The notes under the pieces were generated by a model. The model had not been told where the DNA came from. It searched no databases and saw nothing but the letters and a program-made list of their open reading frames with translations. From Eledone cirrhosa (Eukaryota), in NCBI GenBank assembly GCA_964016885.1, contig OZ024742.1, forward strand, positions 140,120,001 through 140,184,000: 64,000 nt of DNA, given 5' to 3'. Positions 17,801 to 49,418 of the stretch are shown here, one piece after another. Positions within the stretch are counted from its first letter, which is position 1; every line of letters starts with the position of its first letter. Made by a program: the position numbers and the translations under genes.

Positions 17801-18018
17801 TATATATATTAATAGAGAGAAGAACCAAGTTATACTTAAAATATATCTTTATTCTACATCTATATTGGAAAACCCCAATGTTACCATTATATTTTTTGTG
17901 TCTATCCTTTGTAATGCTGTCTCTATTTTTTGAACTTCTTTTCCATATAAAGCATGAAACTAAGATTTTTTGTATCTGTTTTGTTGTTTCCTTGAACTAT
18001 ATATATGTATATTATAAA

Positions 18019-18090
18019 GAGTCAGGATGCCGACTGAGTTTGGAACTAGCTGTTGAAACGGAAATAACTCAACCGTAAGGGTCCTAACTC
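18019..18090 (+). ncRNA. Degenerate type I hammerhead ribozyme
   Basis: Stem I GAGTCAGGAT/GTCCTAACTC and GAAA-CGG-loop-CCG-TA are present. The 5' core reads CCGACTGA instead of CTGANGA. Confidence 0.45.
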
Positions 18091-18893
18091 TTTATAATAT
18101 TACCGTACTTTACTACCCCAAGTATTGAGTACTCTGTTGAGTAATGGTCTAGCCAGTTTCAAACTGAATTCATCCTGATTTATATATATATTATATGTAT
18201 GTATGTATGTATATGAAAGAGTCAGGACACCAATGGCTGAACTCTTGCCATTTCAACAGCTCGGCTAGAATTGTTGAAACGGCAAGAGCTCAGCCGTTGG
18301 GGTCCTGACTCTTTTATATAACCATACTCTACTACCCCAAGTATTGAGTACTCTGGTGAGTAATGGTCTAACCAGTTTCTTACTGATTCCATTTTCATTT
18401 TTTTTATTTATATATATTAAGCGCCGAAACATCTATGATCTGCGGTTTACAGCTGATGAAGGCTTTCTTCTCTTGTTTCGTCCACACTACCATTTTAAAC
18501 TTTGTTTACAGTAACCACACAGCTCATTTCGTTTCTTATATATATATATATGAGAAAAACCACAGACCCTCCATCTCAACTCTACTTTTGAAAAGCAGAA
18601 GAACTGTGAAGCCGGTAAAGGAACCAAATAAATATATATATTTAAAAAAAAATAAGACTCCAGTTGCATTTTCGATTCCATCTTTTTTTCTTTATATATA
18701 TATATATATACACACACACACACACACACACACGTGTGTGTGTGTATATATAAAAATAAAGTTCTAATTTTATTTCTAATATTCGGCAAGGCCAGCCGTA
18801 ACTCGCTCAGTATGCAAATGAGGCTACTCAGCCGATGTGTACTTAAGAAAATACTATATATTTTCAACTGTTCCAACAGAGTGGCAGAGGTAT

Positions 18894-18936
18894 ACAGTCC
18901 TGATGAAGGGTAATGACCCAGAAACATGTTGATTGT
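18894..18936 (+). ncRNA. Minimal type I hammerhead ribozyme
   Basis: ACAGTC CTGATGA aGGGT aatg ACCCa GAAA CATG TT GATTGT. Stem I 6 bp, palindromic stem III AACATGTT, GUU cleavage triplet. Confidence 0.8.
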
Positions 18937-44762: not shown

Positions 44763-47700
44763 ATGCAAAGGTTTTATTTAAAATTGTTGGGTTACAACAA
44801 GTAAATATTTTATAACTGATATAAAGCACTCGACAAGTTTTTGGAGTATATATACGATATTAAACAAATGGAAACTATATTTATAAAACCATATTTATTT
44901 CATTATACATATTTCAGGGATACCATATTAAAAATATGGCATGCCTTCGTCAGATAAAATACAATATATAAAGTTTTATAAATAATTTTGACGTGCCATA
45001 TTATAAGCGACCATTAAATTAAGAAGCTGTCTGGGTAGTGATTTGTTTATACTTATTTAGTTATAGTGTTAAGCACAGTTAGAAAAAAGATGGAGAGAAA
45101 GAAGAAACGGAGGTAAAGAAAAAACAGAGAAATAGAGGGGAGAGAAAGAAAGGAGGAGGTGAAAAGGAACAAGGAAGAAATAAGAGAGGCAAACGAAAGC
45201 AACAGATAAATAATAATTCACCATACATATAGAAAAACTCAAGAGAGAGGGAGTACTATATATAGAGAGAAGGATAATAATTATTTAGTTATAGTGTTAA
45301 GCACAGTTAGAAAAAAGACAGAAAGAAAAAACTGGAGATAAAGAAAAAGAAAAAACGGAGAGAGAGAGGGGGGAGGAAAGGAAGAGAGAGAGAGAAAATA
45401 TAAATATATAGGAGGAAGTGAAAGAGAAACAAGAGAGAAATAGGAGAGGCAAACGAAAGCGATAGATACATAATAATTCATCATACACAAAGACAAACTC
45501 AAGAGAGAGGAGAAAGTGCTATATAGAGAGAGAAGGATATAGTTACATCTTTACGTCATGTCATATCAATTTGAATTATCAATTCATATGAAATGGATAA
45601 TAAGAATGCAAATATCGATATTCATGAATGAGACATAGATATATAGTATGAGAAAATAACATTGTTCAATAATGACCATATGTTTAGTTTAAAACTCTGA
45701 GGTCAATATGCCAAAATCTGAGATAAAACCTTCAAAAAATTACCCTATCTATAAAAATACGGAAATATATATGTATATGTACTTTCTGAAAAAAAGAGAA
45801 AAAATAGAAAATTATGTCTAACTCTAGTCAATAATATAGACATACACATGACTTCACCTGATCAACCTTATAATTTCTTGTGTTATAAAAATTTCACTGT
45901 ATATATACATAAATATATGATTAATATTCATGTTCTCACATATATGATTACCGTTTATGTATTTAATATTATGCATATCTGTAACATATACAAAACCATA
46001 CCTATATATATATATATATATGTATATATAAAATCTGTGTGAGTTTACAAGCATCTCTACGCACATATACAGACACATGAACACATAAAATAAACTCTAT
46101 AAACCTTCTATATGCATGTTAATACACATATGGCCTTTGTATAGAGATAATCAAATATCAATATATCAGCACAGAAATATCAAAACATTAAAATACTTTC
46201 AACACATTATAGAGTATCTCAGGCCCAAAACAATATGCTTCATATATTTACTACAGAAATGTACCCTTCCCATATTTTCAAACAATATATTGCAAAGTTA
46301 GTTATAAGCTATCAGAGTCAAATAACAAATAAAAACCAAAAATTATTTAACAAAAATTATTTAAAAGATTTAGAAGACCCAGTGATTCTACGGATGCCCT
46401 TATATTTAGTATAGAAATTTATCTTGCGTAAAATTTATTTAATACATTGGGAGCATATCCACTTTAGAGTAGTTTATTACATCTTTGTTTATATTTAGAA
46501 AGAAGGTTTAAAAAGAAAAAGGTGAAGGAATCAAATGATTTATCGTCAGGTTTCATATATTAACTAAATTTCTTAATTAATTATACTACATTTTAAATTT
46601 ATATTTATATTTAAACGTTGAGTTCAATCTATGTCTGCAGCAACTGAATAAATTGCTCCTTAAATTAAGGGAATTTTTGGACTTTAATATAAAGAATACC
46701 TTCTCCACACAGAGATCACATGTCTCTGATGAGGAATTAAAGGGAATTTCCTTTGAGACAATATTCCAAAACATTGAATACTCAACATTATCTCGTTTAA
46801 GTTGCCAGAGTAGGCTTGATAGCGAAGTTGAGGATTTTTTGTTTGGATCTGTGAAAGAATTCTTATGATTATTGAAGCGAAGTTTAAATTCTGTCGAGGT
46901 TGAACCAACATAGTTGAAAGAATTTAAGTTAGTTTTAACATTACAATTGTATACTACATTTTTAACTAAGCAATTGTTATTTAACGGACAGTTAGATTTA
47001 TTTCTACAGTTTCAGTTATTTAATTGAATATTGTTTGGGTTATTATTGGTATTTTGGTTAGGTTTTAAATTCCTATTATTAATTCTGTTAATATTTTGTG
47101 CTAAATTTTTGGTGGACGAGTAAGTTAATTTTATAGTATGTCTATTAAAAATTGAGTGATATTTATGTGTTCTAGGGAAGCGTTTGTCAAGAGCATTAAA
47201 GAATAGTTTAGCAATATGGGTTTTAATATTTAGTGAAAAAAGGGGGGAGGGGCAAACCATATTATATTTCTAGTTCTATTTCTTTTTCGGCTTTTGGAAT
47301 TATTGTAATGTTTTCTATTATAGTTGTTAATGTTGCTACCGTAATTAAAATTGTTATTATTTTGGTTAGTTTGCTTATTATTATCGATGTACTTAATTTT
47401 ATCACTATATCCTGCTCTAGCTAACGCTTCATTGTAATACTGTGCTTTTTCATCAAAAATATTTTTATTAGATGAAATTCTTGAAATTCGTTCTTGAACA
47501 GAGTTCACTATAGTATTTTTAACAGATCTGGGGTGATTAGAGTTAAAATTGACATAATTCAAGTTCTCATTTAGTTTGTGAAATGGATAGTGAAGACATG
47601 TGTTGAGATTTAGTGTTACATCCAGGAAATTGACTATTCTATGGTTATTCTCTATTTCTATTTTTAGATTAAGGTAATTAAAAAATTGTATAATTTGTTT

Positions 47701-48005
47701 TCTTTTTCTATTTAGTTCACAGTTATTATTTTCAATAAGTAAAAGCATGTCATCACGATATAATCCTCCGGTTACACCTGGTATTTTTCTATGCAGCGAA
47801 TTAATTATAAATAGGCCCACAAGGTCCGTTACCTGAGCTGAGTCAGATGATCCCATAGTTATGTCAAAATTATTAACTCTATCTGCCCTAGTCCATAGTT
47901 GGTTATTAAATTCTATCAATGTTTTCCTTGCTGATAATATAATGTGCATTTCATTGCTAGTTAGGTCTGTATGTTTAAATGCGTAATTTAGTGCCTTATT
48001 CAGTA
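44763..48005 (-). mobile_element. 5'-truncated PLE: RT (motifs B-E), GIY-YIG, ~1.8-kb 3' UTR, HHR
   Basis: FDITMGSSD..GGLYRDD..VNFLDVTLNL. Frameshift at the poly-C run near 47245. In-frame TGA at 47012-47014, then NCRNKSNCPL..VVY..YVGST..CDLC..CCRH ending at 46586. Confidence 0.93.
44896..44961 (-). ncRNA. Type I hammerhead ribozyme near PLE 3' end
   Basis: Reverse complement TATTTTAT CTGACGA AGGcATGCCATATT ttt AATATGGTATcCCT GAAA TA tg TA TA ATGAAATA. Stem I 8 bp, AUA triplet. Confidence 0.85.
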
Positions 48006-48614
48006 GATATAAATATGTATTTATATATATATGTAAATATATATATAAATATATATATAAATATATATATGTATTTATATAAATATATATATAAATATAT
48101 ATATAAATATAAATATATATTTATATATAAATATATATATATATTTATCATCATCATCATCGTTTAACGTCCATGTTCCACGCTTGCATGGGTTTGGACG
48201 GGAGTTTTCCCACTTGAGGCAAGAGTGGTTGTCATTGCTTGCATAGGACTGTCTGGCGGGTTTTTATAAATATATATATATATTTATATATATAAATATA
48301 TATATATATTTATATATATGTGTAGGTATGTATACTCCCTCTGATAGTTTGTAAAAATTTTACATAGATCTATAGGATATGCATACCAACACTAACATAT
48401 ATATCCTAGAAACGATCGTAAAATGATGAATTTTTTAATATAAGGAACTGTTTCTTTGTTTATTCATTATTCTATTAATTTATCTTGACTCTGTTTTCCG
48501 TTAATTTTCACCGAAAAAATTTTTTGAATACATCTTCTCTTTTCATGATATTCGGATTACATTGAGTTCTTCATACGGATTGGACACTACTGTACACTTT
48601 GGTAGATTTATCTA

Positions 48615-49418
48615 CATATATATTTATATATAAATATATATAAAAATATATGTATTTATATATATATATATATAAATATATATATAAATATATATATATA
48701 TATATATAAATATATATATATATATAAATATATATATATATATATTTATATAAATTTATATATATAAATATATATAAAAATATATATATGTATTTATTTA
48801 TATATATATATATATATATATAAATATATATAAAAATATATGTATTTATTTATATATATATATATATATATATATATATATATAAATATATATAAAAATA
48901 TATATATGTATTTATATATGTATTTATATATATATATAAATATATATAAAAATATATATATGTATTTATATATGTATTTATATATATATATATAAATATA
49001 TATAAAAATATATATATGTATTTATATATGTATTTATATATATATATATAAATATATATAAAAATATATATATGTATTTATATATGTATTTATATATATA
49101 TATATAAATATATATAAAAATATATATATGTATTTATATATGTATTTATATATATATATATATATAAATATATATAAAAATATATATATGTATTTATATA
49201 TATATATATAAAAATATATATATGTATTTATATATGTATTTATATATATATATAAAAATATATATATGTATTTATATATAAAAATATATGTATTTATTTA
49301 TATATATATATATGTATTTATATATAAAAATATATGTATTTATTTATATATATATATATATAAATATATATAAAAATATATATATGTATTTATATATATA
49401 TATAAATATATATATATA
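48615..49418. repeat. Degenerate (TA)n with higher-order ~55-nt period
   Basis: Recurring TAAATATATATAAAAATATATATATGTATTTATATATGTATTTA units. Confidence 0.9.

Follow-up and report, generated by a model that had tools for sequence, protein, structure and literature searches.

Penelope-like elements (PLEs) of the Hydra clade, which carry a C-terminal endonuclease (EN), have been reported to bear hammerhead ribozymes (HHRs) and to insert into (TA)n; they include an octopus member, Hydra-1_Obim, with RMRWK and DKT motifs, and the pattern of tailed ends and inverted copies left by PLEs has been published in the same work (PMC8557442). For an anole PLE, this pattern reflects two internal start sites for reverse transcriptase (RT) together with the cutting of both strands of AT-rich DNA (PMC11167929). 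A link between PLEs and the retrozymes without long terminal repeats (non-LTR retrozymes) has been argued from their co-occurrence and from similarity of their pseudo-LTRs (PMC7229834; bioRxiv 10.64898/2026.07.22.740005). Here we describe a 64,000-nucleotide window of the Eledone cirrhosa genome (GCA_964016885.1, contig OZ024742.1, positions 140,120,001 to 140,184,000, forward strand; coordinates below count from its first base), in which an earlier note had marked positions 18000–48620 as a (TA)n-anchored nest of PLEs and HHRs. We favour, with a probability of about 0.88, the interpretation that this region consists of independent, mostly 5′-truncated PLE insertions piled together, from three Hydra-clade families and one other, together with two non-coding HHR units, all of them ending in (TA)n. 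Coding parents of families B, C and D, a pair of fixed 3′ ends abutting TA in each of five families, inverted partners lacking the tail and a genome-wide association with TA were observed directly. The nest is a known kind of PLE–hammerhead association at TA, rightly recognised in the earlier note and ordinary for this genome; its interest rests on the genome-wide scale, on the insertion signature of a retrozyme and on family D.

Ten complete HHR motifs and one core-deleted copy (30943) were found in the region with our own descriptor (CUGANGA, stem II, GAAA, stem III, NUH, stem I), the threshold of which was set after the motifs of the window had been viewed. The intact motifs lie at 18894–18936, 27658–27695, 32348–32392, 33344–33409 and 42550–42620 on the plus strand and at 25981–26018, 32193–32237, 36139–36217 (with a weak stem II), 38404–38474 and 44896–44961 on the minus strand; with the same descriptor, neither the remaining 33 kb of the window nor the 10 kb adjoining it on either side yielded a complete motif. 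Its specificity was assessed on a 710-kb sample of the 3.0-Gb assembly (71 stretches of 10 kb at fixed positions on the chromosome-scale contigs, excepting C16, C19, C20, C27 and small scaffolds), which gave 1, 1 and 0 hits when shuffled three times and none when reversed or complemented. U3-A8 cores were rejected as a large extra class, with one hit per 710 kb, no more than in the shuffles (1, 1 and 0). Rfam Hammerhead_1 matched the window only at 25977–26021 and 27655–27699 (the family B pair), below the gathering score, and Rfam microRNA matches, also scoring below gathering, were discarded as hairpin or TA noise.

All ten motifs have the conserved core, NUH triplet and three stems of minimal type I hammerheads, with helix III an exact palindrome in four, carrying one or two mismatches in five and long in one. 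They resemble the minimal type I hammerheads of PLE pseudo-LTRs (PMC4209133) in the short or palindromic helix III, in an additional nucleotide at the bottom of helix II and in occurring singly or as close opposite-strand pairs. Three pairs (25981/27658, 32193/32348 and 38404/42550) are inverted duplicates, so that the 11 whole or core-deleted motifs trace to approximately eight insertions. Seven HHR families (A–G) are present, as the earlier note had counted; its total of about 12 ribozymes becomes ten complete and one core-deleted, and its description of the families as unrelated does not hold, since the proteins of B, C and E are 37–45% identical and the ribozymes of C and E are built on one scaffold. 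The core deletion noted at 30943 was confirmed as a family C copy that has lost 3 nt from the core, whereas the supposed degenerate ribozyme at 18019 has no CUGANGA core and is a foldback with only the 3′ half (GAAAC, stem III, stem I). The reading of the motifs as terminal hammerheads of PLEs and the TA borders of the inserts were both borne out, and 31% of the flagged 30.6 kb is interrupted (TA)n.

Families B, C and E are assigned to the Hydra clade on motifs, compared by eye with the alignment text of Fig. S7 of PMC8557442. Full copies of family C have a 750-amino-acid (aa) open reading frame (ORF) with RIRWR, DKT, FDITMGSSD, GLYRDD, CNCx5C, CxxC and CxH, and an HHR 1.3–1.6 kb past the stop (loci L168–L170). 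The coding parent of family B has the same motifs, with the HHR 1.8–2.0 kb downstream of the ORF (L174, L175, L187), and the 260-bp family B inserts are the end of this coding family. Both encode, in a single ORF, an RT followed by a C-terminal GIY-YIG EN, the GIY-YIG match being weak (L168, L187), and they share 44% identity over the RT. Similar to the described Hydra clade (PMC8557442), B and C have RWR (as RIRWR) in place of the N-terminal RWK motif, DKT, GLYRDD, a spacing of 62 aa between RT motifs A and B, a divergent RT4 (FD[IV]TMGSxD), a CxCX5C linker, CxxC and CxH without CCHH, and a 3′ HHR with a (TA)n target. Family E, compared by its EN frame only, has the same Cys pattern, linker and lack of CCHH, is 37–38% identical to B and C, and likewise combines a 3′ HHR with (TA)n insertion. 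The Hydra identity proposed earlier for the DITMGS/GLYRDD element was borne out, and all four of the motifs named (DITMGS, GLYRDD, CxCx5C and CxxC) are present. The length generally below 3 kb given for the Hydra clade, a descriptive and not a diagnostic trait, is exceeded by B, C and E, in which an ORF of 2.2–2.7 kb is followed by 1.25–2.0 kb to the HHR.

The structure model of family C (predicted local distance difference test, pLDDT, 90.6) has TERT as its best match, and the closest named homologues of the PLE proteins of the window are from Argonauta hians (39%) and Octopus vulgaris (70%). A PDB sequence search gave no match, and none of three full-length PLE ORFs had a Pfam RT or GIY-YIG match; standard annotation therefore misses these proteins, and the PLE content of such genomes may be undercounted. 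A genome search with the family E 3′ end returned no matches and missed the window copy itself; E motifs were nonetheless present in the 710-kb sample.

Copies of these families in the region are incomplete. Interrupted (TA)n fields at 23345–28377 (no strand) host a minimal family C foldback (24321–24518, plus), in which an inverted tail-less end is joined to a forward end with a 90-nt tail and half a ribozyme remains, and two family B inserts: a shortened, tail-less 3′ end (25927–26189, minus; GUC triplet) and its inverted partner (27487–27751, plus), truncated at the same base. Two 5′-truncated family C copies follow. That at 28932–31045 (plus) has an inverted tail (28932–29033), an EN remnant, a long 3′ untranslated region (UTR) and the core-deleted HHR; that at 44755–48008 (minus) retains RT (DITMGS, GLYRDD), EN (46586–47011), a 1.6-kb 3′ UTR, the HHR at 44896 and a 90-nt tail, and is broken by a frameshift near 47230 and a stop near 47012, the first linker Cys of the 46586–47011 copy being replaced by a stop codon. 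A C-related subfamily contributes the 3′ end at 33072–33452 (plus), whose HHR has an AUA triplet and a palindromic helix III. Two 5′-truncated family E copies lie head-to-head at 38280–42652 (both strands), with EN frames at 40242–41300 (plus) and 39509–40288 (minus); the HHR at 38404 is on the tail-bearing arm and that at 42550 on the other strand. At 44690–44730, just ahead of a TA run, an isolated CUGAUGA core lacks a GAAA counterpart and is probably the cut end of another family.

The insertion signature is shared across families. Two fixed 3′ ends were found in B, C, D, E and F (99, 90, 56, ∼80 and ∼80 nt apart, respectively), and TA mostly follows both. The tail end and the short end account for 22 and 19 of 41 copies in family B, 63 and 32 of 97 in C, 40 and 27 of 71 in D, 9 and 10 of 21 in E, and 37 (tandem junctions included) and 8 of 48 in F; the inverted partner copies usually have the short, tail-less end. 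At least four TA units, (TA)4, were found within 300 nt downstream of 56 of 61 sampled motifs (L219 left out; inverted pairs not independent), compared with 27.5% of background positions, and motif counts per stretch climb with TA content (Spearman 0.53), which extends the TA association seen in the window to the genome at large. At L086, L028 and L178, interruptions of the TA array hold one strand polarity over both flanks of an insertion, as expected if the insertion went into one pre-existing array.

Target-primed reverse transcription at TA repeats is the likely route by which the elements arrived. By analogy with the biochemistry of another PLE, the GIY-YIG domain would cleave AT-rich DNA on both strands, and reverse transcription would begin at two internal RNA sites, giving one tailed and one tail-less arm. 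Synthesis beginning just 3′ of the ribozyme would allow short abortive copies to retain the HHR, so that HHRs would pile up far faster than ORFs, and each insertion would be flanked by TA that remains a target, allowing nests to grow. For the minimal ribozymes, the prediction is of weak cleavage that takes place in dimers or with the aid of protein.

Two inverted arrangements within the TA fields deserve description. A perfect foldback at 34319–35214 (322/322 bases) consists of the head of a tRNA-derived short interspersed element (SINE) and a ∼210-bp interrupted TA array, mirrored round a TA spacer, the host TA having been duplicated along with the element. At 25927–27751, the B arms are cut at an identical base and enclose 1.3 kb of non-mirrored TA, possibly the result of TA expansion after a foldback insertion.

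Several observations weigh against the interpretation of the region as a pile of independent PLE insertions. The loci used for the 3′ ends (families B–F) were mostly top search hits, so the proportions given above may be biased. Both inverted pairs with TA between their arms, the B pair and the SINE mirror, are unexplained by simple foldback insertion, and the reading does not account for the one-sided orientation in the window, where most tail-bearing ends point toward ∼27 kb. The 5′ ends do not cluster at the site of cleavage, only 2 of 120 lying within 3 nt of it in family A, 1 of 24 in B, 1 of 69 in C and none in D (0/48), E (0/18) or F (0/28); cleavage was accordingly rejected as the event that sets the 5′ ends of copies, and the ends give no sign of the ribozyme acting in the element cycle. 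In addition, minimum-free-energy folds of the naked motifs miss the active core, stem I is weak in the motifs at 33344 and 44896, and weak or no cleavage has been published for many such motifs (PMC4209133 among the sources).

These ribozyme data are what would be expected if the motifs were inert relics, amplified merely as neighbours of the RT start site, that no longer cleave or matter. This is also supported by the anole PLE, whose ribozyme mutants still insert in vitro (PMC11167929), and by published tests in which eight of nine Xenopus retrozyme dimers failed to cleave. However, the core and three-stem layout have been retained across many sampled families whose stems and flanks bear no relation to one another, and most motifs have a palindromic or near-palindromic helix III, a pattern suggestive of selection acting on the elements. 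We regard complete inertness as rather unlikely; it is in any case compatible with the favoured insertion mechanism.

The TA tracts themselves bear on a different origin, in which the region would be a special single composite (a chain like the Terminons, or a healed break) made in successive rounds of reverse transcription, during which the RT would itself synthesise TA as telomerase does. Consistent with this, the PLE RT models fold like TERT, six of the seven tail-bearing ends in the window point left, and the TA interruptions between 23345 and 42905 are strand-polarised, being TTT-rich left of ∼26 kb, with AAA alone on the top strand between 27752 and 42905. However, this polarity follows no genome-wide rule and is unrelated to orientation at other loci (tail ends in TTT-rich versus AAA-rich arrays: C 6 vs 7, D 6 vs 5, B 2 vs 5), on which ground the writing or orienting of TA tracts by the elements was rejected. 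Identity to the best relatives also varies among the inserts (G ∼85–88%, A 91–94%, B and F 98–99%), and comparable densities are common elsewhere in the genome sample. A single composite is hardly credible in the face of these observations.

Artefact was considered as a source of the inverted pairs and long TA fields, since (TA)n is self-complementary and the two halves of the SINE/TA mirror are identical; foldbacks arising in assembly or in reads would then have doubled the motif count. Public contigs cover family E at high depth and none bridges the inversion junction. The inverted partners, however, end at the family-specific short end in dozens of loci, which random foldback would not produce, several differences separate the two B arms, a 219-bp duplication distinguishes the E arms, and the structure matches the published PLE pattern (PMC8557442), making an artefactual origin very improbable.

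The picture of a landing pad shared by coding PLEs and HHR-only passengers stands as regards (TA)n targeting and fails for the B, C and D inserts, which were rejected as HHR-only elements and are 5′-truncated ends of coding PLEs. Only A and F, among the seven families, are non-coding retrozyme-type units. Family F is a 540-bp unit in head-to-tail arrays of 1–4 or more, with 96–99% identity over full units and no shared upstream parent among the 21 loci listed; in the window it occupies 35884–36568 (minus) as one unit and a 138-bp partial unit, the HHR at 36139 having a GUA triplet. Family A is an older unit of ∼400 bp (91–94% identity) in circularly permuted partial tandems; its insert at 18754–19420 (plus) holds an internal microsatellite, is interrupted at 19029–19216 by another dispersed repeat, and has a GUU triplet and a palindromic helix III in the HHR at 18894. 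A, F and the 17-motif array of locus L219 resemble the described non-LTR retrozymes (PMC7229834; bioRxiv 10.64898/2026.07.22.740005) in their non-coding tandem units (400–540 bp in A and F) with one type I HHR each. The L219 array (L219:4009–9200) is made of 310-bp tandem units arranged head-to-head, its motifs being split 5:12 between the strands.

Family F differs from those retrozymes in the insertion signature itself, with a fixed 3′ end in TA and a tail-less inverted partner, its inverted copies stopping at 464–468 of 540. Of all the data presented, the PLE two-end signature of F argues most strongly for the use of PLE machinery by a retrozyme, and the combination of two start sites with inverted copies in F goes beyond the literature cited. 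It is likely that F borrows a PLE enzyme, and it was probably copied from multimeric or circular RNA because its 3′ end is fixed while its 5′ end varies over 1–4 units.

The two family G inserts at 18019 and 18215 (18015–18390, plus) are tiny foldbacks with the 3′ half of a long-stem-II hammerhead and a tail. No catalytic core was found in any of 64 copies within the 165 nt inspected, and a parent element was looked for and not found; four copies of a related subfamily carry the whole long-stem-II motif, two of them with the U3-A8 core variant also described among minimal type I hammerheads (PMC4209133). These foldbacks (18015–18390; L137–L155), of ∼200 bp and resembling miniature inverted-repeat transposable elements, turn inside the long stem II of the ribozyme and have 18 related copies per 710 kb.

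Our results place the nest within a much larger population. The sample contains 78 motifs in 710 kb (1.1 per 10 kb), 17 of them in the L219 array, which extrapolates to ∼3.3×10^5 motifs in the genome (bootstrap 1.9–5.1×10^5), or ∼2.6×10^5 without L219. The flagged region, at 3.3 per 10 kb, is ∼3-fold denser than this background, and at least three motifs were also found in 12 of the 71 sampled stretches; the field is therefore not the exceptional landing pad that had been suggested, and is a dense but not rare patch of something common in this genome. The sample (L197–L267) also holds many HHR families besides the seven of the window, with TA fields covering ∼5% of it, Hydra-like ORF remnants ∼1.0% and D-like remnants ∼1.6%.

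Published counts, obtained with descriptors that differ from ours, are 126,247 type I HHRs in axolotl, ∼5,000 in mussel and 2,000–9,000 for the minimal motifs quoted in PMC4209133, compared with ∼3×10^5 estimated here; no record is claimed for this genome. A literature search, judged by titles and the starts of abstracts and with subscription journals outside its coverage, found no cephalopod hammerhead census, and HHR abundance at this scale goes beyond the literature cited; 31 recently active Penelope-like families are reported in O. vulgaris (PMC13282606). It is possible, at slightly less than even odds in our judgement, that a recent burst of several TA-targeting PLE families left ∼2–5×10^5 HHRs, above the cited counts, and that the retrozymes with a PLE signature are mobilised by PLE enzymes. 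The high-copy PLE families of this genome are young and intact, and their RT start sites are mapped exactly, which makes the role of the PLE hammerhead testable, along with the encoding of TA targeting and the use of PLE enzymes by retrozymes.

The Hydra label given to the nest does not extend to family D, to which the HHRs at 32193 and 32348 and the RT at 42931–44445 belong. Its coding parent has a 1,190-aa ORF with a ribozyme of the 32193/32348 type 205 nt past the stop (L188, L189, L193). Within the window, the internal fragment at 42931–44445 (plus) is the RT of this ORF, comprising the N-terminal region and the RT up to motif B, with one in-frame stop near 43296 and a cut before YxDD; a foldback of the 3′ pseudo-LTR lies at 31978–32540 (both strands), its left arm with a 56-nt tail and both HHRs with a CUA triplet, and an isolated D-related 3′ tail at 23235–23345 (plus) terminates at the TA field. 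Membership of the Hydra clade is ruled out by the CX4CxxC linker, DKS and CCHH, and by an identity to C of 12% in profile comparison.

The C-terminal EN, CX4CxxC linker and CCHH instead fit the Nematis/Neptune group, which has a CX2-5CxxC linker, and D resembles the Nematis rows of Fig. S2 (PMC8557442). Compared with Nematis, Neptune and the anole Poseidon PAc (PMC8557442, PMC11167929), it is alike in the C-terminal GIY-YIG, a linker of Nematis-like length, CCHH, an HHR-bearing pseudo-LTR and two 3′ ends, and differs in the 1,190-aa ORF, in a long Asn/Thr-rich N-terminal stretch and in the distance between RT motifs A and B (134 aa vs ∼62). This distance is 131–137 aa in D and 12 aligned long-type homologues (of 35 returned), compared with 60–66 aa in three canonical-type and ten Hydra-type proteins. 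Canonical PLEs lack an insertion-in-fingers domain (IFD), and the rows for Penelope, Poseidon, Nematis, Neptune and Hydra in Fig. S1 show none (PMC8557442); D departs from Nematis/Neptune in having an insertion between motifs A and B. Telomerases are the best match of its structure model (pLDDT 91.5; Foldseek E 2e-9; VIA Z 16.7, root-mean-square deviation 4.1, 342 aligned). Family D thus appears to combine a C-terminal endonuclease with a telomerase-sized insertion (∼72 aa) at a candidate IFD position, which goes beyond the literature cited; the search described above found no paper on a C-terminal-EN PLE with an IFD, judged by the same titles and abstract starts, and Repbase may already hold families such as D. 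If the insertion is a true IFD, the gap between the RTs of mobile PLEs and telomerase would be smaller.

P0144, annotated in octopus as 'dynein regulatory complex subunit 6-like', includes a stretch with 76% identity to part of the family D RT, which reflects either exonisation or an annotation error. Fragments of a non-LTR RT, likely RTE-type, in which the RT is followed by a Cys-rich finger, were found together with short dispersed repeats that have the same ends, at 13085–17377, 28385–28795, 48147–48264 and 49390–49803.

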